NCBI GenBank assembly: GCA_963697275.1
Contig: CAVONF010000006.1
Coordinates: forward strand, 20,802 to 84,801
Source: an uncultured Chloroflexia bacterium
GTDB taxonomy: Bacteria > Chloroflexota > Limnocylindria > Limnocylindrales > CSP1-4
DNA length: 64,000 nt
Reading direction: 5' to 3'
A program made the position numbers and the translations under genes. Shown piece after piece: positions 1,677 to 62,704 of the stretch. Each line of letters starts with the position of its first letter. Position 1 is the first letter of the stretch. The notes beneath the pieces are model-generated. The model was not told the DNA's origin and searched no databases. It saw only the letters and a program-made list of their open reading frames with translations.

Positions 1677-2649
1677 CGGAGGCGTCACGATCTCGGTGCC
1701 CAGCGACTGGGTGTCATGCTGGAGGCCATCCCCGACGATGCCGACCATGTGACGTATGGCCGCATCTCCGTCGAGCCCGGGTCCCGGCGGAGGACCCGGC
1801 AACGCCCCGCAGTCGGGGTCGAACCTCGAATATGTCTCCAGCGGGTCGCTCGTGGCGACCGCGGAGACGGACCGGGTCTTCTGGCGCGCCGATGGCCAGG
1901 AGGAGGAAGCTCCGTGCAGGCGACGCCCGATGACGCTGCGAGCGGGTGACACGGTCCTCTCATGGAACGGCGGTGCCGCCGAGGAGTGGGAGAACGCGGG
2001 GCCCGAGGAGTACGTCTCGTTCTTCCTCGGGGCTGGCAACAGCCATGACCCCGCGGTCGAGCCCAGCTCGTCCCCGGTGTGGAGTGGCGTCACCTCGACT
2101 ACATCTTCCCACCCCAGGAGACCGTCGATGCCTGGTTCAGCGCGCCCATCGAGGTCTCGTACCAACGGGCGACCGGGAGACAGGCGCGCAGCTCGTGCTC
2201 GGGCCTGATGAGGTGCCCATGCTCTCGTTCGACTGGCTCGAGAGCGGCAAGCAGGCGATCGGCCGTCGCGGCTCGATGCGGCGACCGGGCAGCGCCACCA
2301 GGATTCTTGGGGCGGAGGCCGCGAAGACAGCCCGCACCGGAGGGCATCGTCCACGTGCTGGAACGAGGGCGACGAGCCACCGTGGCTATCGCTGCGTTCC
2401 CTCGCATCCATCGCTCGGGGAAGCTGCGGCCGGCGCCAGCGGTGAGTTGACCGAGGATCGACCCGCTCGCGGCCTGAGCCGACCGTCCTGTTCCAGTGGC
2501 CCGCTATCATCCGCGGGTGACTGGCCCGCGACTCACCGGCCGCGAGTGCTCCGGTCCGCTGCAGGGGAGAGGGACATCAGCGACATCGGGATGGCCTGCC
2601 CGGATGGGCGGCCGCTGACAGGTTCCAGCATCGCCACGGTGACCCGCTG

Positions 2650-3981: not shown

Positions 3982-5284
3982 ATGATCGGGCGCTACACGC
4001 TGCCCGAGATGGCGCAGCTGTGGTCCGACGAGAGCCACTTCGAGCACATGCTCGCGGTCGAGCTGGCGGTCCTGCGCGCCCTGGCGGATCATGGCGATGT
4101 CCCCTGGGCTGCCGTGGACGCCATCGCCTCCCGGGCGCGCGTGGACGTCGACCGCATCGCGGAGCTGGAGCGCACCACCGACCACGACGTCGTCGCCTTC
4201 GTGACCCAGGTCGCGGAAGCGGTGGGGGAGGAGGGCCGCTACCTCCACTTCGGCCTGACCAGCAGTGATGTCGTGGACACCGGCCTCGCGCTGCAGTGCC
4301 GCGCCGCTGCCGACCTCATCCTGGCCAGCCTGGACACGACCATCGACACGGTCGTGGCCCGTGCCCGCGAACACCGTGACACGCTGATGATGGGCCGCAC
4401 CCACGGCATCCACGCGGAGCCCATGACCTTCGGGCTCAAGCTCGCCTCGTGGGCCTTCGAGCTGGACCGCGACCGCACGCGGCTCCGGGCTGCCGCGGCC
4501 GACCTGGCCACGGGCAAGATCTCCGGCCCGGTGGGGACCTACTCGCTGCTGCCGCCGGAGGTGGAGGCGGCGGCGCTGGCCGCGCTGGGGCTGGCGATCG
4601 ACCGGGCCAGCACGCAGATCGTGCAGCGCGACCGCCATGCCGCGTTCCTGGCCGCCATCGCCGTGACCGGCGGTTCCATCGAGCGCTTCGCCGTGGAGAT
4701 CCGCAACCTCCAGCACACCGAGATCGGGGAGCTGGCAGGAGCCCTTCCGCCGGGGCCAGGCCGGGTCCTCGGCGATGCCGCACAAGCGCAACCCCATCCT
4801 GTCCGAGCGCCTCACGGGCCTGGCCCGGCTGCTGCGCGGCTATGCCCTCGCGGGCATGGAGGACCAGGCGCTGTGGCACGAGCGCGATATCAGCCACTCC
4901 TCGGTGGAGCGCATCGTCCTGCCCGGCGCCACGACGCTGCTGCACTACATGCTGGAGCGCTTCCGGGGCCTCGTGGCCGACCTCGTCGTCCATCCCGAGC
5001 GCATGGCCGAGAACCTCGCGTCGGGCCAGGGGCTGCATGCCTCCTCCCGGCTGCTCAGCACCCTCGTCGAGCACGGCATGTCGCGGCAGGCTGCGTATGC
5101 CGTGGTACAGCGCAACGCCCTGCGGGCCGGCGATGAACGGACCTCGTTCCGCGCCCTGGTCGAGGCCGATACCGACGTGGCGGCCACGCTCTCCGCCCAG
5201 GCGCTCGAGCACTGCTTCGACGACCGTGCCTGGCTCGGTCATGTCTCCGAGGTCATCGACCGACTGGGTTCGCTGGACCGATGA
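3982..5284 (+). CDS. purB: adenylosuccinate lyase, one frame break near 4735
   Basis: The N-terminal part is in ORF 3982..5136 (MIGRYTLPEMAQLWSDESHFEHML...). The C-terminal part is in ORF 4775..5284 (MPHKRNPILSERLTG...). Dropping one G at about 4735 restores EIGELQEPFRRGQAGSSAMPHKRNP, the lyase signature. Confidence 0.92.
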
Positions 5285-6847
5285 GCGAACGCCCGACGCG
5301 ACGCGCGCTCCTCTCGGTCTCCGACAAGCGTGGCCTGGTGGAACTGGCCAGGGGTCTCGCAGCACTGGGCTTCGAGCTTGTCTCGACCGGTGGCACCGCG
5401 CGCACCCTCCGCGAGGCCGGCCTGGCGGTGACCGAGGTGGCCGAGGTGACCGGCGCTCCCGAGATGCTCGACGGACGGGTCAAGACGCTGCACCCGCGCA
5501 TCGCGGCGGGCGTGCTGGCGGACAGGCACGACGCCTCGCACCGGCAGCAGCTGGCCGAACAGGGTATCGAGCCCTTCGACCTCGTGGTCGTCAACCTCTA
5601 CCGTTTCGAGGAGGCGGCCGCACGACCGGGCATCGGCGATGCCGAGCTCATCGAGGAGATCGACATCGGAGGCCCGACGCTGGTTCGAGCGGCGGCCAAG
5701 AACCATGCCTCGGTGGGCATCGTCTGCGATCCGGACGACTACACGGCGGTGCTGGCCGAGCTCGAGCAACAGGGCGCGCTGTCGGACGATGCGCGGAAGG
5801 CCCTGGCACTGAAGGCCTTCCGGCTCACGGCGCACTACGACGCCGCCATCGGCGCGGCCCTGGCAGCGCGCTGGGCGCCTGCCGATCGCTTCCCTGAGCG
5901 CCTCAGCCTGGGGCTGACCCGATCGCAGCCTCTGCGCTACGGCGAGAACCCGCACCAGGCCGCCGCGCTGTACACGCTGGCAGGCGCTGATCGAGACAGC
6001 GGTCTATTCGCCACCGGAGTCACGCTGCTGTCGGGCAAGCCGCTGTCCTTCAACAACCTGCTCGACGCCTCTGCGGCGGCCGCACTTGCCCGGGACCTCC
6101 ACGGCGCAGCCGTGGTCATCGTCAAGCACGGCAACCCCTGTGGCGCGGCCGAAGCCGGCGACCTGATGACGGCCTGGCAACGGGCCCTCGCCGGCGACCC
6201 GGTGAGCGCCTTCGGCGGCGTGGTGGCGGTGCGCGGCAGCGTCGACGCGGTCCTGGCGGGGGCCCTCACAAGCATCTTCCTGGAGGTCGTGGTGGCCGTG
6301 GGCTTCGACGCGGCTGCCACCGCCATCCTGGCTGCGAAGCCCGACCTGCGCCTGCTCGAGGACCGCACCCTCGAGCTCCCGACAGCGAGTGTCGCTCGAC
6401 GTCCGCAGCGCCGGCGGTGGCCTGCTGCTGGCCGAGACGGATGTGGGGCCGGATGATCCGGACGAGTGGTCGGTCGTGAGTGCCCGCCAGCCGGATGCTC
6501 GTGAATGGGCTGACCTGGACTTCGCCTGGCGCGTCGTGCGCCACGTCAAGTCGAACGCCATCGTGCTCGTCCGCGATGGCGCCGTGGTGGGCGTCGGCGC
6601 GGGCCAGATGAGTCGCGTCGAGTCCGCTCGGCTCGCGGTCGCCGGCGCAGGGGCGCGCGCTGCCGGCGCGGTCGCGGCTTCGGACGCCTTCTTCCCCTTC
6701 GCGGACGGCGTGCAAGTGTGCCTCTCCGCTGGCGTCTCAGCCGTCGTCCAGCCAGGCGGCTCGAAGCGCGACGCCGAGGTCACCGCTGCCGTCGATGCGG
6801 CCGATGCGGCGATGGTCTTCACCGGCCGACGCCACTTCCGTCACTAG
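5281..6847 (+). CDS. purH: bifunctional AICAR transformylase / IMP cyclohydrolase, one frame break near 6385
   Basis: ORF 5281..6456 contains ALLSVSDKRGLVELARGLAALGFELVSTGGTA and DGRVKTLHP. ORF 6389..6847 contains VKSNAIVLVRDGAVVGVGAGQMSRVES and FTGRRHFRH. The start overlaps the purB stop (ATGA). Confidence 0.93.
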
Positions 6848-7036
6848 GGAACCTGGGAGTCGGTCGGTACATCGAGAGGCGCACGGACCACGCTGGCCCG
6901 GGGGCTGTGGCCTGACCCCGGCCGTTTCCTGGTCCCCGCTCGATCTAGGCCGGTTCCTGGCGCCCCGACCGGGGTGCCGCGACGGGGCTGCCGCGACGGC
7001 CCGACTGGGCTACCCTGATGCCCCGACCCAGCCGGT

Positions 7037-7238
7037 TCCCGCCACCTATGCACCGGGGGACTGGTAGACCGGACGGTGGCACCCCGGCGCGGCCAACCTA
7101 CCGGCGGCCGGGCCTGCTCGCGCTCGGCCTGAGCGTGGCGAGGACCTCGCGGTGCCGTCCGGCGTGACCCGGAGGCGCGTCGGCCCGGACAGTTCCCGCC
7201 CAACAGTCCCCCCGGGACTGGCTGACAGGAACGACCAG
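7037..7238 (+). repeat. copy 1 of a ~200-nt structured repeat element (candidate ncRNA); partner at 39485-39688
   Basis: The two copies align by eye. The shared 5' 19-mer is TTCCCG(C/T)CACCTATGCACC. The shared core is GAGCGTG-G(C/G)GAG-GAC-CTC(G/C)C. The shared 3' end is CAGTCCC-loop-GGGACTG followed by GACAGGAACGACCAG. Two hairpins keep pairing through compensatory changes. Confidence 0.55.
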
Positions 7239-7436
7239 CAGTGGCCCGACGCCGCGACCAGCAGCGGCTCGACGCCGGGTGCCGCGAGCGATGCTGTCGG
7301 CTGCGCCGAGAACTCGATGCGGACCCGGGGTTCGGCGCTCCCCCGGCCATGCCTGCCGGCGAGGCACCCCCGGCCATGGCCGCCGGCAAGGCGCCGAGGC
7401 TTGACGCGGGGCCACGCCTGCCGCCATCGTTGGCGC

Positions 7437-8126
7437 GTGGACCTCGACGTCGCCATCGGCATCCTGCGCACGTCGTGTCTGTTCGAGCGCGCCGACGAGT
7501 CCTCGCTCGCCGACATCGCCCGCCAGCTGCGCCATCGCCGCTTCCGGCGCGGCGAGACGATCTTCCACCAGGGCGATCCGGGCGACGCGCTGCACCTGGT
7601 GAGCTCGGGTGCCGTGAAGATCGTGCTGCCCAGCACCGAGGGCGAGGAAGCCATCATCGCGACCCTGCGCAGCAGCGACTTCTTCGGAGAGCTGGCCCTG
7701 CTCGACGGCGCGCCGCGCTCGGCGACGGCCGTGGCGCTGGAAGCGACCGAGACGTGGACGCTCTCGCGCGAGCTCTTCCACGATCTCCTCGACCGCGACC
7801 CCAGGCTGCGCGATTCGCTGCTGGCGGGCCTGGCGCGCGAGCTGCGCCGTCTCACCGGACAGGTGGAGGAGCTGCACTTCCTGGACCTGGCTGGCCGCCT
7901 GGCGATGCGCCTCGCCCGGCTGGCCCGTGAGGCTGACCCGGCCGCCGTCGAGGTGCGCCTCGACTGGCCGTACACGCAATCGGACCTGGCCTCCATGATC
8001 GGCGGCACCCGTCAGTCGGTCAACAGACTGCTCTCCGGTCTCGTCGAGCGCGGCCTCGTGGTCATCGAGCCCGAGACCCTGACCATCCCGGACGTGGACG
8101 CGCTGCTGCGCGAGGCTGACCGATGA
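7437..8126 (+). CDS. Crp/Fnr-family cyclic-nucleotide-binding transcriptional regulator
   Basis: The cNMP-binding domain reads LFERADESSLADIARQLRHRRFRRGETIFHQGDPGDALHLVSSGAVKIV...FFGELALLDGAPRSATAVA. The C-terminal HTH reads YTQSDLASMIGGTRQSVNRLLSGL. The GTG at 7437 is in frame with ORF 7152..8126 and gives the usual length of about 229 aa. Confidence 0.85.
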   Translation: MDLDVAIGILRTSCLFERADESSLADIARQLRHRRFRRGETIFHQGDPGDALHLVSSGAVKIVLPSTEGEEAIIATLRSSDFFGELALLDGAPRSATAVALEATETWTLSRELFHDLLDRDPRLRDSLLAGLARELRRLTGQVEELHFLDLAGRLAMRLARLAREADPAAVEVRLDWPYTQSDLASMIGGTRQSVNRLLSGLVERGLVVIEPETLTIPDVDALLREADR

Positions 8127-9432: not shown

Positions 9433-11062
9433 ATGACCGCACGACGCCGCTTCTACCTGACCACCGCCATCGCCTACGCCAACAATCGGCCCGGCCTGCA
9501 CACCCTCTACGAGGTCGTGGGGGCCGACGTCATCGCCCGCTGGCACCGCATGAGCGGGGATGACACCCGCTTCCTGACCGGCACCGACGAGTACTCGGTC
9601 AACATCGCCACCACGGCAGCCCAGCGCGGCCTCGCGCCGAAGGCCTTCGTGGACGAGATGGTGGCGCTCTTCCGCAGCGCCGAGGATGCCCTGGGCATCA
9701 GCCCCGATCGCTTCATCCGCACCACCGACCCGGACCACACCGAGGCCGTCCACGAGATGATCCGGCGGGCCTACGAGAACGGCGACATCTATCTCGGCGA
9801 ATACCAGGGCTGGTACTGCCCCAACGAGGGCTTCCGCAACACCAGCGACCTCATCGAGGACGAGCGGGGGTTCCACTGCCCCAACCACCCCGACGTGGAC
9901 CTGCAGTGGCTCTCCGAGCGCAACTGGTTCTTCCGGCTCTCGGCCTACCAGGAGCGCCTGGAGCGGTACTACGCCGACCACCCCGACTGGGTGCAGCCGG
10001 AGTACCGCAAGAACGAGATGCTCGGCTTCATCCGCCAGGGCCTCGAGGACTTCTCGGTGAGCCGGGAAGGCGCCACCTGGGGCATCCCCTTCCCGCTCCT
10101 GCCGGACGGCTCCTCCGCCCGCCGCGAGGACGGCAGCTGGGACCCGGCCGCCGGCACGGTCTACGTCTGGTACGACGCGCTCATCAACTACATCACCGGG
10201 GCCGGCTTCCCGGGCGACCCTGCGGCCTTCAGCCACTGGTGGCCGGCCGACCTGCATGTCATCGGCAAGGACATCAACCGCCTCCACACCATCTACTGGC
10301 CGGCGATGCTGATGAGCGGCGGGCTGCCGTTGCCCCGGCAGGTCTGGGTCCACGGCTGGCTGCTGGCCCAGGGCGAGCGCATGAGCAAGAGCCGCGGCAA
10401 CTTCCTCGACCCGGTGGACGTGGTCGCAGCGCTTGGCCCCGACGGCGCGCGCTACACGATGCTGCGCGAGGTCGCCTTCGACCGGGACAGCGACGTCTCC
10501 TGGGACAGCTTCGTGCGCCGCTACAACGCCGATCTGGCCAATGACTACGGCAACCTGCTCAACCGCACGCTGTCGATGACCGGCCGCTACCTGGCCGGGC
10601 AGCGTCCTGGGCCGACCCGGGGGGACCTGGCGGCCAGCTGGTCGACGACCTTCGGGCGCTACGCCGAGAAGCTGGAGGCCTACCTGCTCCACGAGGCGCT
10701 CGAGGTCGCTCTGGGGGTTCGTCGGCGAGGCCAACCGATACGTCGATGCGCAGCAGCCCTGGATGCTGGCCAAGGCCGCCAAGGGCGGTGACGAGTCGGC
10801 CTCCGCTCGCCTCTCCGAGGTGCTCGGCGACCTGCTCGAGGCCTGTCGGGTCATCTCCTTCGCTGCCGCGCCGTTCATGCCCGGAACGGCTGCCCGCGCA
10901 GCTGGGCAGCTCGGCGTCGAGTACACCTATGGCGCCGACGGCAACGGTGGACCGCCGCTGGCCGAGCTGGTCGCCTGGGGCGCGCTCCCGTCCGGCGGGG
11001 CGATCGGCGCGCCGGCCCCGCTGTTCCCGAGACTCGAGGTGGACGAGAAGGAAGAAGGGTAG
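9433..11062 (+). CDS. metG: methionyl-tRNA synthetase, one frame break near 10715
   Basis: From the ATG at 9433: FYLTTAIAYANNRPGLHTLYE (HIGH-region equivalent), then KMSKSRGN. The C-terminus is in ORF 10763..11062. The break sits in a G5 run (ctgggggttc). Repair gives HEALEV..WGFVGEANRYVDAQQPWMLAK. Confidence 0.93.
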
Positions 11063-11070
11063 GGGAGCGC

Positions 11071-11938
11071 CTGCCTGACCTGAACCCCGACGGGCTGCGG
11101 CTCGTCGATTCCCACGCCCACCTGCAGGCCGACGCGTTCGACCGCGATCGTGACGCGGTGCTGCTGGCCGCCTACGACGCCGGCGTGGAGCGTCTGCTGA
11201 TCCCGGCCTGGGACGTGCCCTCCACGCCGAGCGGGCTCGAGTTCGTGCGCTGGCACGGCCTGCGGACGACGACGGGCATCCACCCGCACATCGCGGCCAC
11301 GGTGGATGACGCGATGTGGGAGGCGGTTGCGGCAGCTGGCCACCGAGACGGACGTGATCGGCATCGGCGAGACCGGCCTTGACTACGACCGCGGCTTCTC
11401 GCCCCGCGAGGACCAGCTGGTCAACCTGCGCCGCCACATCGCGCTGGCACGAGAGGTCGGCAAGCCGCTCATCCTGCACTGCCGCTCCAAGCCCGACCAG
11501 CGCGACGCACAGGACGACCTCATCGCCGAGCTGCGAACCGCCGGCGTCGGAGAGCAGGACTGGCGCGATCGTTTCGCCGGCCGACCGCCGGGCGTGCTGC
11601 ACTCCTTCAGCGGACCGGTCGACTACGCCGAGCAGGCCCTCGAGATGGGCTTCCTCATCGCCTTCGGCGGGCTGGTCTTCCGAAGCGGCGAGGAGGCCAG
11701 TGCCGACGTCGCGCGCATCGTGCCGCTCGAGCAGCTGCTCGTCGAGACGGACTCGCCCTATCTCAAGCCCAGGGGAGTCCGCGGCAGCCGCAATCAGCCC
11801 CTCAACGTGGCGGTCACCGCGACGTGGCTGCGCCGGCTTCGCGGCGACGATCCGGAGCTCTTCGGCCAGGCGCTGGTCGAGACCTTCGACCGTTTCGTGG
11901 GCGCCGACCCGACCCGCCTCAGTCCTTCGCCCGAGTAA
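11071..11938 (+). CDS. tatD: TatD-family metal-dependent hydrolase, frame break near 11329, start unresolved
   Basis: LVDSHAHLQADAFDRDRDAVL lies in the frame of ORF 11158..11382. VIGIGETGLDYDRGFSPREDQ...LILHCR...LHSFSG...VETDSPYL lies in ORF 11306..11938. No canonical start codon is visible upstream of the HxH motif in that frame. Confidence 0.8.
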
Positions 11939-21841: not shown

Positions 21842-24693
21842 GTGCCGGATCCGAGGGAAGGCGCACCGGCGGGTCCGCTGCCGACGCCTCAGAACCACCT
21901 GCGGCAGCTCGATGGGCTGCTGAGGCCTGACGATGCGCCCCCACTCCCGACCGAGACGGCTGCGCCCGAGATCGATGATCGGCCCGCGAACGACGCGCTC
22001 GATCCCCGCGGGGTGCGACGCTCCGGCTCCCCGGCCCCCGATCCCGAGCCGCCGGACGATGCCGAGTGGTTCTCGATGGTGGCCGCCACGGCCGGCGAGG
22101 CGGCGCCTGCGCGTCCTCCGCCCGATGCCGCAGCCAGGGCGCGCCGCGAGGCAGACGCGCGTGCGCTCGGCGCCGCCATCGTCAAACGCCTCAACCCGGA
22201 ACAGGCCCGGGCCGTCACGACCACGCAGGGCCCGCTCCTGATCCTCGCCGGCGCGGGTTCTGGCAAGACCCGGGTCCTGGCGCACCGCATCGCGTACCTG
22301 GTTGGCGTGGAGGGCGTGCCGCCCTGGCAGATCCTGGCCGTGACCTTCACCAACAAGGCCGCCGCCGAGATGCGCGAGCGCATCCTCGCCCTCGTCGGCG
22401 AGCAGGGCCGCCAGGTGGCCATGGGCACGTTCCACGCGTTGTGCGCCCGGGTGCTGCGCCGTGACGGTGCCGCCATCGGCATCGACCCGCGCTTCACCAT
22501 CTACGACACCGACGATCAGGCCGGCCTCGTGAAGCAGGTCCTGCGCGACCTTGAGCTCAGTGGCACCGGCGAGCTGCGGCCGGCCGCCGTGCTCTCGGCC
22601 ATCAGCCGCTGGAAGAACGACCTCGTCAGTCCCCTGGAGGCGGACGAGGAAGCGCAGGGCTACCTTGAATCGCAGTACGCCCGCGCCTACGCCCGCTACG
22701 CGCGCCGCCTGCGCGAGGCCAGTGCGCTCGACTTCGACGACCTGCTCATCGAGGCGGTGCGTCTCTTCGAGCGCGCCCCCGCCGTGCTGGCGCACTACCG
22801 GCAGCGCTGGCGCTACCTCCACGTCGATGAGTACCAGGACACCAACCGCGCGCAGTACCTGTGGGTGAAGCTGCTTGCCGGCGAGCACCGCAATCTCGCC
22901 GTCGTCGGTGACGACGACCAGTCCATCTACAGCTGGCGCGGCGCGGACCTGCGCAACATCCTCGACTTCGAGCGCGACTACCCCGAGGCCACGGTCGTGA
23001 AGCTGGAGCAGAACTACCGCTCCACGCAGCTCATCCTCGATGCCGCCCACGCGGTCGTGGCCCGCAACGAGGGCCGGGTGGACAAGAAGCTGTGGACGCA
23101 GAACCCGCGGGGCACGCTCATCGAGCGCTTCGAGGCCGATCGCGAGGACGAGGAGGCCGAGTGGGTGGCCCGCCAGATCGAGGCCCTCGTGGCCGGACGG
23201 GGCAGCGCCGGCTCGGTGCTGGCGCGCCGTGCCGACGACGGCGACGACGACGTCTACCGGCTCCAGGACATCGCCGTGATGTACCGCACCAACGCCCAGA
23301 GCCGCGCCATGGAGGAGGCGTTCCTGCGCTACGGCCTGCGCTACCAGCTCGTGGGCGGCACGCGCTTCTACCAGCGCCGCGAGGTCAAGGATGCCCTGGC
23401 CTACCTGCGCGTCCTGCGCAACGACCACGACGTGGCCGCCTTCGAGCGCATCCTCAACGTCCCGCCGCGCGGCCTGGGGCAGCGCTCGCTGGAGGAGTTG
23501 CGCGAGCTGGCGGCGGCAGCGGGGTGGTGACGTCTGGGCGGCCCTCGGAGCGGCTGCGGAGGGGGCCGGCGAGCTGACGCCCAGGGCGCGCCACGCCTTC
23601 GCGCGCCTTCCGGGCTCGTGATCGCCCGTCTGCGCACGCGGGTCGGCCTGGCCGCCCTGCCGGAGCTGCTGGACACGACGCTCGAGGAATCGGGCTACCG
23701 GGCCATGCTCATGGACGGCTCCCAGGACGGCGAGGACCGCTGGGCCAACCTGCTCGAGCTGCGCGAGGTGGTGGACCGCTACGGCGATCTGGACCCGGCC
23801 GATGCGCTGGACCGCCTGCTCGAGGAGACAGCCCTGGTGGCCGACCAGGACGCCTACGCCGGCGACACGGACAAGGTCACGCTCATCACGCTCCATGCTG
23901 CCAAGGGCCTCGAGTTCGAGGTCGTCTTCATCAGCGGGCTCGAGGAGGGCGTCTTCCCGCACGCCCGCGCGCTCGAGGATCCGCGCCAGATGGAGGAGGA
24001 GCGCCGCCTCGCGTACGTGGGCCTGACCCGTGCCCGCAAGCGGCTCTACCTGACCCACGCCGCCCAGCGCGCCACGTGGGGTCGCTCCGGCTTCTCCGTC
24101 CCCAGCCGCTTCCTGCTGGAGATCCCGGAGGGGCTGATGCACGGGCCGAGACTGGTCTCCCTCGCCGACGACGATGACCAGCGGCCCGACGACGAGCGCC
24201 TCGAGGGCTACGACCTGGGGGCCATCATCGGCCGGCGCCCCTCGGAGACACGCCTCGTGGGTCGCCGCCCCATCGGCCCTGCCGGCGCACGTCGACTGCC
24301 CCCGGGCGGCGGTTTCAACCCCCCACCGGGAGCACCGCGTGCGGGCCAGCCGTTCCGCACCTCGCGTGACCTCGCCGCGCGCCGCGAGGCCTACTACGGG
24401 CGCGTCGGTGGCCCGGCCGCGATCGCTCGCCGGCTGCCCGGGCCGCAGCGCCACCCGATCTCGACGCCGCGCCTGAGGCCCCCCCGGACCGCTGGTCGCT
24501 GCCGGCCGCCTCGAGCGTGCCCGGCGAGCGCCGCTACCACGATGGCCAGAAGGTCCGCCACAAGGTCTTCGGGGAAGGCCAGGTCGTCTCCTCGAGGCTG
24601 ACCCGCAGCGACGAGGAGGTCACGGTCGCGTTCCCGGGACAGGGCGTCAAGAAGCTCATGGCCAGCCTCGCCGGCCTCGAAGTCGCTGGCTGA
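21842..24693 (+). CDS. pcrA: ATP-dependent DNA helicase PcrA/UvrD family; at least three frame breaks (about 23525, 23608 and 24400-24460)
   Basis: - Helicase motifs: LNPEQARAVTTTQGPLLILAGAGSGKTRVLAHRIAYL, TFTNKAAAEMRERI, VDEYQDTN, QNYRST and LHAAKGLEFEVVFISGLEEG...RRLAYVGLTRARKRLYL.
- The C-terminus ERRYHDGQKVRHKVFGEGQVV (Tudor-like tail) is in a further frame that ends at 24693.
- The N-terminal extent is uncertain. Confidence 0.9.
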
Positions 24694-30106: not shown

Positions 30107-32623
<2,517 letters not shown>

Positions 32624-35117: not shown

Positions 35118-36330
35118 TCAGTCCGGTTTGTCTCCCTCGGTTGCCTCGAGCTCAGGCTCGGCTTCGGGCTCCGGTTCGGGCTCGACCACCGGCGTGGGTT
35201 CGGCCTGCCACACAGCCGCCTCAGCCACTGGCTCGGGTTCCGGCTCCGGCTCGGGCTCCGGCTCCGGCTCGGCGCTCCGGCTCGGGCTCCGGCTCCGGCT
35301 CCGGCTCGGGCTCCGGCTCGGGCTCCGGCTCCGGCTCGGGCTCCGGCTCAGTCGCAGGCGCGACGTCCGTGGCCGGCCACGAGACAGCTTCCGGCTCCGG
35401 CTCAGCCACCGGCTCCGGCTCCGGCTCAGGCCGCCGGCTCGCCGGCTCCGGCTCAGCCGCCGGCTCCCGCTCGGGCTCAGCCACCGGCTCAGACTCGACC
35501 ACGAGGGCAGGCGCTGGCGTGGCCTCCACGACGGGCTCGAACTGGGGCTCCGGCTCCGCGGTGATCGGCTCGGGCGCCTCTGCGGGCTGGGGTTCGGCCG
35601 CGATCGCCGCTGCAGACCCGGCTGCCCCGGCCGCGCCAGCCACCACGGCAGCACTCGGCGGGGGCTCGAGATCACCCTCCGCCACCTTCTCCGCGGCTTC
35701 GCGGATCTTGCCATCCGCGCGCATCGAGGCCTCGTTGGTGCCGCCCTTGACGATGAAGCCGTCCGGCAGTGCCTGCAACGGCGCACCGGCGCGGATGGCC
35801 TCCTTGGCATCGAGGACGGCCTTCTTGAACTGCAGACCGTCCACCAACTGGTCGTACGTCGGATTGGCGGTGTCCGACGCGGTGAACAGCGTCAGGTCGG
35901 CGTAGCCCAGGGTGCGCCCCAGGAACGACTGGTTCATGCCGATGTCGTTGATCTGCTCGAGCGAGGCGTCGAAGCTGCTCTTGCGCAGCACACCCTGCAG
36001 GAACATCGCGCGCCGGCTGGTCAGGATGTAGCGCCGGCTCCACCAGCGCACCAGGTCGATGGGTAGCCAGACGACGGCCACGACGATCATGATGATGACG
36101 ATCCAGCCGACGAGCTGGTTGATGATGTCGAGGAGGCCCTCGTCGTTGAAGTCGAGCCAGTTGTTGAGCAGCCAGAGCAGGACCGCGGCACCGAGTAGCA
36201 GGATCGGCCGCAGCACGAAGCGCACGGCCGCGATCCAGTGCTGTCGCGTCTCGATCAGGACAACCTCGCCGCTGGAGAGGAGCCCCTTGACATAGGTCTC
36301 GACCACGGTGCCAACCATCCTTCCGGTCAT
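35118..36330 (-). CDS. bacterial PH-domain (YdbT/bPH_2-like) membrane protein with long Glu/Pro-rich tail; frame break inside the repeat near 35275
   Basis: - N-terminus: [37 protein letters not shown]...[35 protein letters not shown]...LGYADLTLF.
- The C-terminal third is low complexity: (EP)n and AEPEP.
- The last 40 aa continue in ORF 35118..35810. Confidence 0.7.
35229..35348. repeat. hexanucleotide microsatellite (GGCTCS)n encoding (EP)n on the minus strand
   Basis: About 20 consecutive GGCTCC/GGCTCG units are visible. One irregular unit (cggctcggcgctccgg) coincides with the frame break. Confidence 0.85.
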
Positions 36331-36482: not shown

Positions 36483-37621
36483 GTGAACGACGTGCCGCCC
36501 TCGGGCATCCGCAAGTTCTTCGACGTCCTCAACTCCATGCCCGACGTCATCAGCCTGGGCGTGGGCGAGCCGGACTTCGATACGCCTGCCGTCATCGTCG
36601 AGGCCGGCGTCAAGGCCCTGCGCGAGGGCCGGACCCACTACACCAGCAACTACGGGACCATCGAGCTGCGTCGGGCGCTGGCCGTCCACCTGCAGCGCCT
36701 CTACGGCGTCAGCTATGACCCGGAGCGCGAGATCGATCATCACCGTCGGTGCCTCGGAGGGCCTGGCGGCGAGCCTGGCTGCCGTGGTCGACCCCGGCGA
36801 CGAGGTCGTGTTGGCGGAACCCACCTACGTGGCCTACGTGCCGGATGTCGTCTTCGCTGGCGGCACTCCCGTCTTCGTACCCTGCCACCCGGAGGACGGC
36901 TGGCAGCTGGACCCGGATGCCGTGGAGGCCGCCATCACCCCCCGCACGCGGGCACTCTTCATCGGCTTCCCCAACAACCCCACCGGGGCGGTGCTCGATC
37001 CCGAGCGCCTGCGCGCCCTGGCCGCCATCGCCGAGCGCCACGACCTGCTGGTCATCAGCGACGAGATCTACGACCGGCTCGTCTACGGCGGCCACCGGCA
37101 CGAGGCCTTCAGCGCCATGCCCGGCATGCGCGACCGGACCATCCTGCTGGGCGGCTTCTCCAAGGCCTACGCCATGACCGGCTGGCGTATCGGCTATCGT
37201 CTGCGCCCCCGCGGACCTCATCGAGGGCATCGTGAAGGTGCACCAGTACATCATCATGTCCGCGCCCACGGTGGCGCAGGATGCTGCGCTGGTGGGACTG
37301 GCCGAAGCAGAGGCTGACGTGCAGCGCATGGTCGCGGAGTACGACCGCCGCCGGCGCATGTTCGTGCCCGGCCTGGAACGCATCGGCCTCCCGACCGCCG
37401 AGCCCCGCGGTGCCTTCTACGCCTTCCCGCGCGTCGCGAACTCGGGCCTGTCCAGCGACGAGTTCTGCGAGCGCCTGCTGTACGAGCAGCAGGTCGCGGT
37501 CATCCCCGGAAGCGCCTTCGGCCCCGGCGGCGAGGGCTACGTGCGGGCCTCGCTGGCGACCTCCTACGAGAAGCTGGAGGAGGCGCTCGTGCGCATCGAG
37601 CGCTTCCTGGCCACGCTGTGA
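36483..37621 (+). CDS. class I/II pyridoxal-phosphate aminotransferase (AspC-like); frame breaks near 36735 and 37198
   Basis: - First frame: PPSGIRKFFDVLNSMPDVISLGVGEPDFDTP.
- Second frame: IITVGASEGLAASL...FPNNPTGAVL...ISDEIYDRLVYGG...LLGGFSKAYAMTGWRIGY (PLP lysine motif SKAY).
- Third frame: HQYIIMSAPTVAQDAAL...GAFYAFP. Confidence 0.88.
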
Positions 37622-37683
37622 CCCCCGGCCACGCTGTGACCCCCGGCACTGGCCCGCTCCGTGACGAAGGCTGCCGCGACCCG

Positions 37684-39456
37684 ATGACCCTGGCCGCCCC
37701 GGCCGACGTCGGCTACGAGGCCGTCATCGGCATCGAGATCCACGTCCAGCTGCGCACGGCCTCCAAGATGTTCTGCAGCTGCTCCAACGATCTCGTCGAG
37801 GCGACCCCCAACTCGCGCACCTGTCCGGTGTGCCTGGGCATGCCCGGCGCGCTGCCGGTCATCAACCGCGAGGCCGTCTGCCACGTGCTCGCCACCGGCC
37901 TGGCCATCGAGGCGCGCATCCCCGAGGTCACGCGCTGGGACCGCAAGAACTACTTCTACCCGGACCTGCCCAAGGGCTACCAGATCAGCCAGTACGAGCT
38001 GCCCCTGGCGTCGGCCGGCCGACTGGCCGTGGAGACATCCCACGGCACCGTCGAGGTCGGCATCACGCGCGCACACCTCGAGGAGGACACCGCGCGCCTC
38101 ATCCACACCCGCATCGATGGCCGGCCGGTCAGCCTGCTCGACTACGACCGCTCCGGCGCGCCGCTCATGGAGATCGTCACCGAGCCGGTCATCCACGATG
38201 CCGAGACGGCCCGTCGCTATGCCGAGGAGCTGCGCCTGCTGCTGGTCACCATCGGGGCCTCGGACGCGGCCATGGAGAGCGGCCAGATGCGCGTGGAGGC
38301 CAACGTCTCGCTGCGACCCGTCGGCACGGAGGCCTTCGGGACCCGCGTCGAGGTCAAGAACATGAACTCGTTCCGCTCGGTCGAACGGGCCATCGACTTC
38401 GAGATCGAGCGCCAGGCCGCCGCCCTGCGTGCCGGCGAGCCGCTCACCCAGGAGACGCGCGGCTGGGACGATGACCGCGGCCTGACGTACCACATGCGCA
38501 CCAAGGAGACCTCGGAGGACTACCGCTACTTCCCCGACCCCGACCTGCCGCCGCTGCGCCTGGACCCCGCCTGGCTGGCCAAGATCCGCGACGCGCTGCC
38601 GGAGCTGCCCGCGGCCCGGCGGTCCCGCTACCGCGATGAGCTGGGCCTCTCCGCGTACGACGCGGGCGTGCTGGTCGCCGATGCGGCGGCCACGGGCCTC
38701 TTCGAGGCGGCGCGCGCGGCGGACCCGGCACTCCCCGCCAAGAGGCTGGCCAACTGGGTGACCGGCGAGTACCTCCGCCTGGCCAAGGGGGAGAGCGGCG
38801 CTGCCGCCGTGGAGCGCGTCAGCGGCGAGCAGCTGGCGGCCCTCGTGCGGCTGGTCGAGGATGGCGCAATCTCCGGCACCAACGCCAAGGAGGTCTTCGT
38901 GCGTCACGCGGCGACGGGCCGCCCGGTGGCGGACATCGTGGCCGAGGCCGGCCTCCGCCAGATCAGCGATGAGGGCGCGCTGCAGGCCGCCGTGGATGAG
39001 GTCATCGTGGCGAACCCGGCGGCCGTGGCCGATGTCCGCGCCGGCGCCGACAAGGCCATCGGCTTCCTCGTCGGCCAGGTCATGCGGAAGACGCGCGGCC
39101 AGGCCAACGCTGCGGTCGTGCAGGAGCTGCTGCGCGCTGCGCTCGAGCGCACGCGCGAGCGAGGCGGACTAGCGATGGAGCTCGTGGGCCTCGCGCTCAT
39201 CATCGGCGGCCTGGCCGCCATCGCCCTCGGCGCGCTGCGCATCCGTGGGCCCTTGGCGACCATCCGCCACCTCGATGCGACCGAAGCCAACCTGGCGCGC
39301 TACGAGACCTGGCGCGGCAAGCGCACCGGGGTGGAGGTGGATGGCCCCACCGGCGCCGACACGATGCGAGCGCTGATGCGCCAACGCGCCATCCTCTGGG
39401 GCGGCCTCATCGGGGCCGGCGTGATCGCCATCGTGGTGGGCCTGCTCGTCCGGTAG
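37684..39456 (+). CDS. gatB: Asp/Glu-tRNA amidotransferase subunit B, read through into a ~94-codon two-TM extension
   Basis: - The ATG at 37684 opens MTLAAPADVGYEAVIGIEIHVQLRTASKMFCSC...CPVCLGMPGALPV...YDRSGAPLMEIVTEP.
- The normal GatB end (GQVMRKTRGQANAAVVQELL) is at about 39130.
- The frame then stays open through MELVGLALIIGGLAAIALGAL...LIGAGVIAIVVGLLVR.
- That segment could instead be a separate small gene, 39175..39456. Confidence 0.88.
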   Translation: MTLAAPADVGYEAVIGIEIHVQLRTASKMFCSCSNDLVEATPNSRTCPVCLGMPGALPVINREAVCHVLATGLAIEARIPEVTRWDRKNYFYPDLPKGYQISQYELPLASAGRLAVETSHGTVEVGITRAHLEEDTARLIHTRIDGRPVSLLDYDRSGAPLMEIVTEPVIHDAETARRYAEELRLLLVTIGASDAAMESGQMRVEANVSLRPVGTEAFGTRVEVKNMNSFRSVERAIDFEIERQAAALRAGEPLTQETRGWDDDRGLTYHMRTKETSEDYRYFPDPDLPPLRLDPAWLAKIRDALPELPAARRSRYRDELGLSAYDAGVLVADAAATGLFEAARAADPALPAKRLANWVTGEYLRLAKGESGAAAVERVSGEQLAALVRLVEDGAISGTNAKEVFVRHAATGRPVADIVAEAGLRQISDEGALQAAVDEVIVANPAAVADVRAGADKAIGFLVGQVMRKTRGQANAAVVQELLRAALERTRERGGLAMELVGLALIIGGLAAIALGALRIRGPLATIRHLDATEANLARYETWRGKRTGVEVDGPTGADTMRALMRQRAILWGGLIGAGVIAIVVGLLVR

Positions 39457-39484
39457 CGTCGCCGACGTCCGCGGCGCGCGGGCC

Positions 39485-39688
39485 TTCCCGTCACCTATGC
39501 ACCAGCGGACTACTGGACCGAAGGACGGCGGTCCGGCGCTGCCAGCTGACCGACGGCAGCGCCTGGTGGAGCTCAGCACGAGCGTGGGAGGACCTCCCGG
39601 GCACGGTCGCTCGAGACCCCGGACGCCCGGCGGAGAGGGCGGTGTCCGTCTACCAGTCCCCCGGGGACTGAACGACAGGAACGACCAG
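39485..39688 (+). repeat. copy 2 of the ~200-nt structured repeat element (candidate ncRNA)
   Basis: See 7037-7238. This copy lies in the gap between convergent genes: 29 nt after the gatB-frame stop and 54 nt from the stop of the minus-strand BMP gene. Confidence 0.55.
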
Positions 39689-39741
39689 GGCTCCAGTCGC
39701 CCATCCGCCCTCCCACAGCGGCTCTCGTTACGCGGCCCCCT

Positions 39742-40976
39742 TTACGGTGCCGGTGACTCCTCCGCGGCGTCCGCGCCCGCGTCGGTGCCCCCGGTGCCCC
39801 CCTCGCCCGCGGGCTCGTCAGGCGTCGCCGCCCCATCCGGGGCATCCAGGCCGAGCGGCGCTCCGCAATCGGCCGAGCACGTCTCCACCTGGCCCGTGAG
39901 GATGGCCTGTCTCGGCCTGCTCGTAGCGCTCGGCCAGGTCCACGGGGAGGCCGGGCAGCCGCGTCCATTCGTCAGTGACCCCGACGTGACCGTCGGCACA
40001 GTCCCAGCCGCCATTCCGGTGCGAGCGTCTGGTTGGCGAACTGGAAGATCGACTCGCGTACGGCGTACTCGAAATCCTTGGTGATGCTGGCAAGGATGCA
40101 TTCGGCGAGCTCCGGGTAGGTGGTGGAGACGTCGACGTCCGTCCCCACCGCGTAGATGCCGGCCTCGCAGGCTGCCTCGATGATGCCCCGCGAGCCACTC
40201 CCGGCCAGCGGCAGGAGCACGTCTGGATCGTAGACATCGATGAAGGCCTTGGCGAACGTCTTGGCCGAGGTCGGGTCATCGAAGGCGACCGCCTCACCCT
40301 CGTCGGCCAGGTAGGCCACCTCGACATCGATGTCCGGCTTGACGCTACGGGCTCCCAGCAGGAACCCCTGGATGTAGCGGTTGCACTCCGCGCAGTCCAG
40401 CATGCCGCTGATGATGCCCAGGCTGTCGTCGCGACTGGCTGCGGCAGCGATCACTCCCGCGAGGTAGGCGGCCTGGTCGACCTCGAAGCCTACCGCCGAG
40501 TAGTTGAATGGGATGGCGTCAAGTCCTCCCTCGCAGGTCCCTGAAGGGTCGGCCCGACCATCGCGGGTGACGCAAGGCAGCGCCTGATCGATGTCCAGGA
40601 AGACCGTGTTGGGGTAGGCGGCTGCGAAGCCGACGGTGCCCTGGCTGTCCCCTCCACTGATGACGACCACGTTGCGGTTCTCCTCGGCCAGGTCGCGAGC
40701 GGCAAGGACGACGTTGGAGGTGGCGGGCAGCGTCACCGACAGGAACCCGGCCTTCTTGCCCTCAGGCCTCCCGCCGATCTCCTCGTGAGCGAACGCAGCG
40801 GCCCTCTCCACGATGGCGTTGATGGCGGGCTCGGTGACGTCGTTGCGGACGAGTCCCGTGGTCACACCCTCGACCTGATTCGGAGGCGGCGTGGCGACCG
40901 GCTCGCCGATCTGCGCGGAGACCGCGCCGCCACCAAGCAGCGCGAACGCTGCGGCCAGGCTGATGACCTTGATCAT
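39742..40976 (-). CDS. BMP-family (PnrA/Med-like) ABC transporter substrate-binding lipoprotein; frame breaks near 40018 and 39903
   Basis: - Signal peptide MIKVISLAAAFALLGGGAVSAQ. An alternative ATG sits at 40991.
- Body: VVVISGGDSQGT...YSAVGFEVDQAAYLAGVIAAAAS...LPLAGSGSRGIIEAACEAGIYAVGTDVD.
- The C-terminus ...GWDCADGHVGVTDEW...AILTGQVET... is recovered from ORFs 39818..40327 and 39742..40101. Confidence 0.8.
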
Positions 40977-41180
40977 GGGTATTCCGCGCATCGGGTCCCT
41001 TCCTCGGCAGGCTCGTCGACGACGCACGCATGGTACGTGCCCTGACGCACAACGCGCTGCAGGACCATCGGCGCAGCGGCAGGAACACCCGCGGAGGCAC
41101 CCATCAGGCCGCCGATACCGCTTCCCGGCGGCCCCTGCCCGCCCTCGACCACCCGATCGGCCCTCGCCCCGCCATCGGCC

Positions 41181-41470
41181 GCCGATGTGCGATGCATCGA
41201 TCATCCAGCCGCGCTACGCCCGGTCAGCCACCTCCGACGAACCCTTCGCACCCCGATGACCGATGTATCGATCATTCCGAGGCCGAAGCCGAGGTCGAGG
41301 GACGCCAGGGCGTCTCTTCGTGCCCCAACCGTGCGATGCATCGATCATCCCGGGCCGCTATGGCCCGTGAACCGCCACCGCGACGAGCTACGAGCCGAAC
41401 ATGGTCGATGTTCGACCACCCCGCCCTGAGGGCCCTCCCCCCCGCCCCGATGTTCGCCCCCGATGCGCAC
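41181..41470. repeat. degenerate ~72-bp tandem array carrying AT-rich palindromic cores (CGATGCATCGATCATCC)
   Basis: - Core copies at 41187-41206 and 41331-41350 are identical: GTGCGATGCATCGATCATCC.
- Variant GACCGATGTATCGATCATTCC at 41258-41278.
- Decayed copies near 41397-41420 and 41447-41470.
- CGATGCATCG is a perfect 10-bp palindrome. Confidence 0.8.
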
Positions 41471-61222: not shown

Positions 61223-62445
61223 GCCGGCACCTCGAAGAGTCGGTCATAGCGGGTGAGGTCGACGACCGGGGCCTCGGGCTCACCCTCGGCGAGCCGGTCT
61301 CGGGCCTCGCGCGCGAGGCGGATGGCGCGACCGTGCGCCGGATCGAGCACGACGTCCGCGGGCACGAAGCTGCGCCGGTGCTCGGCGATGGGCGCGCCCT
61401 CGCAGGTCAGGTGCACGCGCTCGGGTGTGACCCTGATGCCGATGCGTCGGCCGACGAAGGCCGGGGGCACCGAGTAGTCGGCGGAAAGGACGCGCACGAA
61501 GGCGTCCTTGCCGGCCCGGGCCTCGAGGTGCAGGTCGGTGTCGGGCACCGGCTCGGGCAACCGATGGAGGAAGCCGCGCTCGACGAGGAAACGGTCACGG
61601 ACCCGGGCCCCGGTCCGCCGGAGCGTGCGGGCGAAGGCCACCTCGGCGGCCCAGGCGTCGTGCTGGGCCTGCAGGTCGGTCAGCGAGGCGAACGAGCGCA
61701 GCGGCAGGAAGCTCGTCTCGAGATAGCCGATGGTGCGCTCGACCTGGCCCTTCGACGTCGGTCGTCGTGGCGCGAGGGGCACCGCCGTCGTGTGCAAGGC
61801 CCCGAGCAGCGCCGTCACCTCGGGGTGAAGCCGGGCCCGCTTGCCGGCTCCTTCGGCCACGATGCTCGCGTCGTTGTCGTGCACCAGCTTCTCCGGTACG
61901 CCGCCCAGTCGTCCCAGGCAGGCCACGAGGGCGACCCGGAGGTCGGCCACCGTGCGCCCGAGGGTGAAGACCGTCGCGTGGGCGCCCGAGTGGGGCAGCG
62001 TGAGCACGAGGCCGAAGGCCTCTCGCTCGACGCCAGTGCCGACCGGCACCATGACGCCGGTGTGCCACCAGTCGAGCTGGCCGATCTCGCCGGGCAGGTA
62101 GCTCGTGCGCTGGAAGGCACGGGCGGCGAGGAAGCCCGGGCGGACCCGGGCGAGGTGCGCCTTCAGGATGCTGATGCCACCGCCGTAGCCCGAGCGGCGC
62201 AGATGGTCGAGGATGACCGTGGCGGGGGCTTCCGCGTCCTCGTCGAGCATGGCTGCGATCTCGTCAGCGAAGGGGTCGACGAGCGAGCCCTTCAGGCCTC
62301 GCACGTACCTCGGTGGCTCGCCCAGCCCGAGCAACCGGATGACGGTCGTGCGGCTCATGCCGAGCCGTCGGGCGATGGCGCGCTTGGTCAGGCCCTCGCG
62401 ATGGAACAGTCGCTGGACCTCGGCCCAGTCCTCCACTCGATACAC
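61219..62445 (-). CDS. istA: IS21 transposase IstA
   Basis: Intact 408 aa. N-terminal HTH EGLTKRAIARRLGMSRTTVIRLL. The DDE region contains GEIGQLDWWH...LVHDNDASIV...KGQVERTIGYLE. The 3' end overlaps istB. Confidence 0.92.
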   Translation of the reverse strand: MYRVEDWAEVQRLFHREGLTKRAIARRLGMSRTTVIRLLGLGEPPRYVRGLKGSLVDPFADEIAAMLDEDAEAPATVILDHLRRSGYGGGISILKAHLARVRPGFLAARAFQRTSYLPGEIGQLDWWHTGVMVPVGTGVEREAFGLVLTLPHSGAHATVFTLGRTVADLRVALVACLGRLGGVPEKLVHDNDASIVAEGAGKRARLHPEVTALLGALHTTAVPLAPRRPTSKGQVERTIGYLETSFLPLRSFASLTDLQAQHDAWAAEVAFARTLRRTGARVRDRFLVERGFLHRLPEPVPDTDLHLEARAGKDAFVRVLSADYSVPPAFVGRRIGIRVTPERVHLTCEGAPIAEHRRSFVPADVVLDPAHGRAIRLAREARDRLAEGEPEAPVVDLTRYDRLFEVPA

Positions 62446-62704
62446 TCCTCTCTCCCTCGGTGCCGGCGTCGTCTTGTCGGCCCGAGGGTGCCTGCGAAAC
62501 CCGGTGGGGTGTCCAGGTTTCGGCCGGCGGGGAGTGTTCAGTCTTCACCCGGCGTCGACAGCCCACAGGCCTGCCCCCATTGGGGCCCAACGGGGGCATC
62601 GCCCACGTGTATCCTCTCAACGTCCCATCGCGTTTGCGCGTGCTCGTCGGACGTACGAGCCCGCGCTGGACCAGTCGTCGTCACCTCATCGGGGGAGGTT
62701 CTCT

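Follow-up and report, generated by a model that had tools for sequence, protein, structure and literature searches.

The 64-kb stretch of contig CAVONF010000006.1 analyzed here (the window; 70% G+C) carries two copies of an unannotated ~200-bp non-coding repeat, and a third copy lies at an unrelated locus (L001) on contig CAVQRP010000006.1 of an uncultured Chloroflexia metagenome-assembled genome (MAG), CAVQRP01. Together they constitute a true repeat family that is unrecognized by any Rfam model. With confidence that does not exceed even, we favor reading this repeat as a low-copy, lineage-restricted, non-autonomous foldback element of the MITE kind (MITE, miniature inverted-repeat transposable element), because its size, inverted ends, variable core, lack of an open reading frame (ORF), position at operon ends, eight empty sites in relatives and the second foldback family present at one of its sites all fit such an element. 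Its sole trait beyond those of a routine repeat is a strand-biased upkeep of pairing, which hints that the element is selected as a transcript.

The segment 7037 to 7238 matches 39486 to 39688 in the same orientation with 73.5% identity over 204 nt (E=3e-28, blastn against the window), bearing out the end-to-end similarity that an earlier reading of the window, made from the sequence only, had noticed by eye; every sequence block quoted there is likewise present. The next-best match of this segment in the window (E=0.003) is the inverse match of the element's own ends. MAFFT alignment of the two window copies displays sharp edges (TTCCCG... on the left, ...GACAGGAAC(GACCAG) on the right), which are retained in the three-way alignment with the L001 copy. 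Copies 1 and 2 share a 5' block, TTCCCG(C/T)CACCTATGCACC, that is identical at 18 of 19 positions, a core block, GAGCGTGG, that is followed by GCGAG-GAC-CTCGC (7138 to 7150) in copy 1 and GGGAG-GAC-CTCCC in copy 2, and a 3' block, CAGTCCC-NNN-GGGACTG, that is followed by GACAGGAACGACCAG. Across the three GC-rich copies (71-75%), pairwise identity is 59-70% overall, 78-87% in the arms and 46-64% in the ~120-nt interior. No ORF is common to the copies in any of the six frames of the 198-204-nt core, in agreement with the sequence-only reading, which had seen no consistent protein frame, and stops inside the conserved blocks rule out a small protein on either strand. That reading had also seen no match to a riboswitch consensus. 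Rfam 15 yields no match at the gathering score at either window copy, matches with E up to 10 are chance-level, and the best sub-threshold ones reach ~18-20 bits against thresholds of 42-70. The Rfam search was functioning, since in the same window it recovered a full-length c-di-GMP-II-GCG riboswitch aptamer (RF03170) at 439 to 526 on the plus strand, with 58.6 bits against a gathering score of 47.9.

Structurally, the element is bounded by imperfect inverted repeats of ~37-40 nt (GTTCCYGYCA.../...TGACAGGAAC), and its plus strand is laid out as 5'-GTTCCYGYCACCTATGCACC..GGACTGGTAGAC ... CTACCAGTCCCC.GGGACTG...GACAGGAAC-3'. The inverted ends are detected as reverse-strand self-matches by nhmmer, a covariance model and blastn, and repeat finding delimits L001 arms of 42 nt that are 74% complementary. 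The terminal stem comprises 33 pairs over 39 columns, with 94-95% of cells paired on the minus strand. In addition, the right arm is the 3' half of a 41-nt palindrome whose 5' half repeats the left arm (in copy 1, 19-nt arms with 74% complementarity). Apart from one small hairpin (Table 1), the interior retains just a few short blocks across the three copies.

Consensus folding places the conserved structure in the terminal stem and on one strand. RNAalifold energies were compared with those of 300 column-shuffled alignments preserving conservation and gap patterns. On the minus strand the consensus reaches -72.1 kcal/mol against -57.0±4.5 for the shuffles (z=-3.4, 0 of 300), and on the plus strand -54.8 against -51.2±4.2 (z=-0.84). 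The 121-nt interior alone scores worse than column shuffles on both strands (z=+0.76 and +0.93), a comparison of low power with three sequences. The signal thus arises in the long stem that the two ends form, and no other conserved structure reaches significance; that stem does so on the minus strand only. The sequence-only reading had instead rested on two interior hairpins kept by compensatory changes. One exchange per hairpin does connect copies 1 and 2; hairpin 1 is compensated as described (7086 to 7094 with 7106 to 7114, against GGCGCTGCC/GGCAGCGCC in copy 2), apart from a G.G mismatch in copy 1 that went unmentioned. The L001 copy, however, loses hairpin 2 and has a different stem in place of hairpin 1, and once this third homolog is added the interior hairpins no longer qualify as conserved structured RNA.

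The strand asymmetry extends to the individual arms. In each of the three copies, the arms form a stronger duplex on the minus strand than on the plus strand (-52.5/-40.4, -39.7/-32.0 and -61.6/-50.9 kcal/mol), and the 41-nt terminal hairpin follows the same pattern. The non-Watson-Crick states of variable stem pairs are 12 G.U and 2 A.C on the minus strand (one-sided p=0.0065), a value obtained with a structure taken from the same three sequences and to which a mutation process with strand bias could contribute. At 70% GC, the energy obtained by folding one sequence alone is not informative (z between -0.3 and -1.4).

Genomic neighborhood analysis shows that the surroundings of the three copies are unrelated: purH/Crp for copy 1, gatB/Bmp for copy 2 and sugar epimerase/periplasmic binding protein for the L001 copy. 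The names on the GatB and Crp homologs point to a Limnocylindria-like member of Chloroflexota as the source of the window, and the neighborhood is housekeeping and syntenic with relatives (purA, purB, purH, Crp, GAF and metG; ligA, gatC, gatA and gatB, then a Bmp-type ABC transporter). All three copies stand at operon ends, each co-oriented with its upstream gene on the plus strand. Convergent genes flank copy 2 and the L001 copy, neither of which has a downstream gene on the plus strand. In total, eight orthologous sites are empty (L015, L016, L017, L018, L019, L022, the P0125 contig and L020), and parsimony suggests gain rather than loss at the filled sites.

Copy 1 lies between the purH stop (6847) and the start of Crp (7437; 229 aa, identical to P0121), and the sequence-only reading gave its distances to both correctly. 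Four relatives with 83-90% Crp identity (L018, L019, L022 and the P0125 contig) lack the element at this site. In these relatives the purH-Crp spacer holds a conserved minus-strand gene of 61-66 aa (...D(V/A)EGNS(M/L)(L/V)IG...DLAR...), also called in the P0125 contig. The window lacks this gene and has 550 nt of unrelated non-coding DNA, including copy 1, in its place; tblastn rules out that copy 1 is a decayed ortholog of it. Only the last ~40 nt before the Crp start (7400 to 7437, TTGACGC...CCATCGTT) are conserved across L018, L019 and L022, with TTGACGC itself at 7400 to 7406 and the stretch as a whole reading CTTGACGC...GCCGCCATCGTT...GTG. This suggests a promoter very near the Crp start codon, with a possibly leaderless mRNA. 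Because only these final ~40 nt are conserved, the Crp promoter probably lies downstream of copy 1, and copy 1, being upstream of the conserved promoter region, therefore falls outside the Crp leader.

At the site of copy 2, the gatB-93aa-Bmp arrangement is empty in L015, L016 and L017 (84-91% GatB identity), where the genes follow one another in the same order and the spacer measures 0, 12 and 86 nt, compared with 285 nt in the window. The true Bmp stop (~39742) was placed by comparison with L017, as a frameshift splits the Bmp ORF in the window. The window gatB is fused in frame to the 93-aa membrane protein, which is a separate overlapping gene in relatives. The L001 copy lies between a sugar epimerase gene and the terminator hairpin of that gene, facing a convergent binding-protein gene. 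In L020 (97% epimerase protein identity) the same two genes and terminator enclose a 96-nt spacer without the element, against 600 nt in L001.

The corresponding epimerase/binding-protein spacer of a further relative (L023, 86%) holds a different foldback of 206 nt (10981 to 11186) with perfect 18-bp inverted ends (TCCCACATAGAGCGAACG). It resembles the repeat in size class, intergenic site, inverted ends, ~170 nt of GC-rich filler and flanks rich in tandem duplications, and both start TTCCC... and finish ...GGGA; its perfect ends, however, are of another sequence. Homology between the two is unsupported, since their global similarity does not exceed that of shuffles (z between -0.3 and 2.3). 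After the L023 foldback, a 20-nt unit is repeated in tandem three times (11265 to 11328).

The family appears rare and narrow, as defined by its conserved blocks, because the searches gave one further homolog. When 185,579 species genomes were scanned for exact matches to the 19-nt left block, L001 was the one true homolog; the single other match is a coincidence within coding sequence. The exact terminal block occurs once in MAG CAVQRP01. A looser block search of JGI metagenomes gave 12 matches, 10 of them apparently coding and the others L009 and L013, none a true copy; the L009 match is a promoter-like site upstream of a tRNA-like region. The L013 match (2500 to 2529, minus strand, GCCACCTATGCACCAGAGGACTGGTCGAC) precedes the start of a gene for a small membrane protein by ~45 nt, on a metagenome contig of 56% G+C. 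Its resemblance is limited to the first 29 nt of the left arm, with 6 of 7 bases agreeing beyond the search pattern, and may reflect chance or a distant relative of the terminal motif. No copy was found in viral contigs (scanned twice), plasmids or phages, and blastn on plasmids and phages returned nothing related. The covariance-model search that the sequence-only reading had proposed, here with a model of the three copies (R1) alongside nhmmer, recovers the known copies and no extra members in ~175 kb, that is, the window and nine fetched loci; L022, L023 and L024 likewise hold no copy by these searches. Within the window, pattern search, nhmmer and the covariance model detect no copy beyond the first two, and a literature search with a conserved 12-mer returned only unrelated primer sequences.

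MITEs are defined as generally <200 bp and up to ~400 bp in length, without a transposase gene, with terminal inverted repeats around a core, flanking direct repeats, multiple genomic copies and a long stem-loop at the RNA level (PMC3184786). Set against this definition, the repeat has the size and the absence of a transposase, the terminal inverted repeats, the filled and empty sites and the long RNA stem-loop. Characterized families of this kind include ERIC (~127 bp, Enterobacteriaceae), Correia/NEMIS (~104-157 bp, Neisseria), Chunjie (178-235 bp, Geobacter) and Nezha (cyanobacteria) (PMC3184786). Like the repeat, they are small and non-coding, with inverted ends around a variable core and a very stable predicted stem-loop, and they occupy intergenic positions at gene 3' ends, where they would be co-transcribed, with filled and empty sites among close relatives. 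The likeness is one of architecture, with no similarity in sequence expected; unlike them, the repeat consists of old copies (59-70% identity), is GC-rich and comes with more gained DNA than its core.

REP sequences are described in PMC3733652 as 20-40 bp long, with a GTAG or CGTC head and a high copy number. The RAYT-mobilized REP/REPIN elements resemble the repeat in being palindromic and extragenic, in lying between convergent genes, in forming RNA or single-stranded DNA (ssDNA) hairpins and in lacking target duplications. Relative to that description, the repeat differs in its 200-nt length, its GTTCC ends without a GTAG/CGTC head, the two copies seen and the absence of a RAYT gene among the genes seen.

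As a MITE-like foldback, the element would be a non-coding unit of ~200 bp in which imperfect inverted arms of ~37-40 nt surround ~120 nt of fast-evolving, GC-rich filler with one small conserved hairpin. By insertion or recombination, it would have reached three or more unrelated intergenic spacers, all at operon ends, in two genomes of Chloroflexota, with empty sites persisting in close relatives. Arm complementarity appears to be kept mainly via G.U-compatible changes on the minus strand. Because the stem is maintained in this strand-biased manner, its minus strand is probably read out in single-stranded form, with RNA the simplest case, and the product is predicted to fold into a rod of 33-39 bp (-40 to -62 kcal/mol). 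At copy 2 and in L001, the minus strand would be the 3' untranslated end of an ABC-transporter binding-protein gene, for which reason a 3'-hairpin role is the simplest mechanism. The likeliest effect, as in ERIC/Correia-type repeats, would be a change in how transcripts end or how stable they are, brought about by a strong 3' hairpin.

If correct, this reading would make the repeat the first MITE-like foldback family described from soil Chloroflexota, in a Limnocylindria-like lineage whose operon-end spacers are repeatedly colonized by ~200-nt foldbacks, with two unrelated families at one orthologous site. It would also aid annotation, as such segments would not be miscalled as riboswitches or small RNAs (sRNAs), and help to understand assembly breaks and strain-level variation in MAGs.

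Besides the dependence of the strand test on a structure taken from the sequences being tested, several findings weigh against this reading. No target-site duplication abuts the GTTCC/GGAAC ends in any of the three copies, and, unlike in ERIC, Correia, Chunjie and Nezha, there is no TA-type flank and the copies seen are few instead of tens to hundreds (two in 64 kb and one in another genome). A parent insertion sequence with the same ends, or any transposase with matching ends, is absent from the window and the other fetched loci. The DNA gained relative to the empty sites amounts to ~270, 550 and 485 nt, so that 70-350 nt of locus-specific sequence exceed the 200-nt core. As the copies are just 59-70% identical, none is the product of recent transposition. 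Finally, no promoter or intrinsic terminator matches at the copies, and no promoter- or terminator-like flank is conserved on either strand. The sequence-only reading had opposed a MITE, expected in dozens of copies with target-site duplications, to an RNA gene; the inverted ends and insertion polymorphism now speak for the former, whereas neither dozens of copies nor target-site duplications were found.

An 11-nt direct repeat around copy 1 (6972 to 6982 and 7277 to 7287) is separated from the ends of the left and right arms by ~55-60 and 45 nt, respectively, and is at chance level (~0.2 expected), and the filled/empty comparison of L001 with L020 yields only a loose GGAGCAC / GGATACGC resemblance. 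The flanks are unique to each locus, which rules them out as part of a larger repeat; the short tandem duplications in which they are rich also occur commonly across the whole window. The window has no transposase genes other than those of an IS21-family element (60397 to 62560), whose unrelated ends speak against a derivation of the repeat from it. The ends of this IS21-family element contain internal AAACCTG(A/G)ACA repeats, and a possible CCCA duplication flanks the element.

Two other explanations keep room because there is neither a target duplication nor a parent element, copy number is low, divergence is old and the insertions are oversized. The first, which we consider unlikely, is a free-standing minus-strand sRNA gene encoding a rod-like RNA of ~200 nt and spread by horizontal transfer or recombination, not by transposition. 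Its long closing stem with conserved internal loops would be functional, for example in an RNA that binds a protein or is processed by RNase III. Selection on RNA predicts that pairing is conserved on one strand, as observed here (z=-3.4 against -0.84; 12 G.U against 2 A.C), and conservation is block-wise, with invariant unpaired bases within the stem such as AUA in GGUGCAUAGGUG. So few copies, diverged so long ago (59-70% identity), are more in keeping with a gene than with an active transposon, and gained DNA exceeding the core would be expected if promoter and terminator traveled with it. No promoter- or terminator-like element is conserved beside the core on either strand, however, and the interior has no conserved fold. 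Synteny is zero, with the repeat absent from all close relatives examined, and a different foldback occupies the same site in L023.

The second explanation, which we regard as improbable, treats the repeat as a DNA or ssDNA site: a recombinase, an HUH/Y1 transposase or a dimeric DNA-binding protein would bind or cleave at the palindrome, at its third half-site within the left arm and at the GTTCC termini, and the minus-strand hairpin would form in ssDNA. The palindrome is in keeping with this: the arms of CAGTCCC-NNN-GGGACTG are invariant in the three copies while the 3-nt center varies (CCC, CCG, CCC). The absence of target-site duplications also agrees, being expected in single-strand transposition of the IS200/IS605 type, and the strand asymmetry fits as well, since G.T pairs are tolerated in folded ssDNA. 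Genomic context argues the other way, as no recombinase, integrase or Y1 transposase gene is near any copy (the genes over 2.6 to 47 kb are housekeeping) and the genes on either side of copy 2 and of the L001 copy converge, a setting in which operators do not act. Integron attC sites, which span 57-141 bp, run 5'-RYYYAAC ... GTTRRRY-3' and stand beside cassettes and an integron integrase, differ from the repeat in its 200-nt length and in its ends, 5'-GTTCCYG ... CRGGAAC-3' on both strands, a GTT...AAC arrangement that by-eye comparison shows to be the reverse order; no integrase is among its annotated neighbors.

A more speculative variant, to which we attach very little probability, combines mobility and RNA function. 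Some insertion sequences encode guide RNAs, and the repeat could be a horizontally mobile gene for a new rod-shaped minus-strand RNA of ~200 nt, either the orphan guide or scaffold RNA of an unlinked transposase or nuclease or a self-propagating RNA-encoding cassette. The functional scaffold would consist of the conserved arms and their fixed internal loops, and the specificity or filler region of the variable interior.

Highly unlikely is a decayed gene fragment or solo end of a larger mobile element that was duplicated segmentally. The many split genes in the assembly mean that indel errors could hide frames, and the 5' block translates as ...TYAP.DW... in one frame in all copies. Nevertheless, stops break every frame in at least two of the three copies, even inside invariant blocks, and both ends are defined and mutually inverted, unlike those of a random gene fragment. 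Nothing related was found in plasmids or phages by blastn, nor any protein family or full-length element containing the 200-nt sequence.

Essentially excluded is a plus-strand, riboswitch-like cis-regulatory RNA in the Crp leader with a second copy elsewhere: the single compensatory exchange in each of two interior hairpins between copies 1 and 2, the alternative pairings of left-arm GGACTGG and right-arm GGGACTG with CCAGTCCC and the co-orientation of all copies with an upstream plus-strand gene are outweighed by a plus-strand fold no better than shuffles (z=-0.84; interior z=+0.93), by plus-strand C.A mismatches where the minus strand has G.U, by the position of copy 1 upstream of the conserved Crp promoter region with orthologous Crp genes lacking the element, by the absence of a downstream plus-strand gene at copy 2 and L001 and by the lack of an Rfam match. 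Riboswitches and leader RNAs such as the c-di-GMP-II-GCG aptamer share with the repeat a non-coding, GC-rich sequence, stems and mutually exclusive pairings; the repeat differs in having no conserved gene association, no interior fold, a signal on the wrong strand and a location outside the leader.

Table 1. Positions of the repeat copies, their parts and associated features (window coordinates unless a locus is named).
Feature	Position	Strand	Sequence or structure	Remarks
Copy 1	7035..7238	- (strand of conserved fold)	GTTCC...GGAAC = 7035-7232, plus GACCAG common with copy 2	Covariance model R1: 200.6 bits, 7034-7240 minus
Left terminal arm, copy 1	7035..7070		GTTCCCGCCACCTATGCACCGGGGGACTGGTAGAC	Pairs with right arm
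Earlier hairpins 1 (7086-7094 with 7106-7114) and 2 (7138-7150)	7086..7150			Compensated between copies 1 and 2 only; not retained in L001
Interior hairpin	7121..7135		CGCTC-loop-GAGCG, variable 5-nt loop, then invariant TGG	Only interior hairpin kept in all three copies; 4 of 5 pairs never vary
Right end, copy 1	7192..7232		41-nt imperfect palindrome GTTCCCGCCCAACAGTCCC-CCC-GGGACTGGCTGACAGGAAC	17-nt core palindrome 7204-7220; hairpin -26.5 kcal/mol minus vs -18.3 plus
23-nt tandem duplication, two copies	7232..7277		CGACCAGCAG(T/C)GGC(C/T)CGACGCCG	Begins in final bases of copy 1
Copy 2	39484..39688	-		Between gatB/93-aa stop (39456) and convergent Bmp/PnrA-like stop (~39742); R1: 187.1 bits, 39483-39690 minus
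Left terminal arm, copy 2	39484..39519		CTTCCCGTCACCTATGCACCAGCGGACTACTGGAC	
Right end, copy 2	39642..39682		41-nt palindrome	Core CAGTCCC-CCG-GGGACTG at 39654-39670
IS21-family element	60397-62560		52-nt ends 79% complementary, TGTCAACGCCGG.../...CCGGCGTCGACA	IstA-like transposase 61219-62445 (-); IstB 60326-61222 (-)
61-66-aa gene, L019	9568-9753	-		
61-66-aa gene, L018	6293-6493	-		
61-66-aa gene, L022	3-119	-		

The 23-nt tandem duplication that begins in the last bases of copy 1 is a secondary event outside the repeat family. Elsewhere in the window, conserved genes are split or fused by apparent frameshifts (5281 to 6847, 21842 to 24601, 30537 to 31550, 37618 to 39456 and 39742 to 41204): purH is spread over two frames and uvrD over two ORFs, ligA is truncated, and Bmp leaves its frame at the C-terminus. 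Such a pattern suggests either indel errors in a long-read MAG or pseudogenes, and because so many conserved genes are affected, homopolymer runs in the repeat may be inexact. The ORFs downstream of the c-di-GMP-II-GCG aptamer (434 to 2650) have no Pfam match and look frameshifted.

The window also contains coding repeats of other kinds. A very large, repeat-rich region for a surface-type protein spans 51750 to 59352 and includes a VWA domain and five SpaA_3 prealbumin-like domains (53184 to 57230). Exact coding tandem arrays of 78, 39 and 21 nt occupy 51865 to 53111, and the surface-type region has, in addition, five copies of a 330-nt and seven of a 435-nt repeat. Finally, ~43 copies of the hexamer GGCTCC (35230 to 35490) form a low-complexity coding repeat inside a minus-strand bPH_2-domain gene (35221 to 36330).

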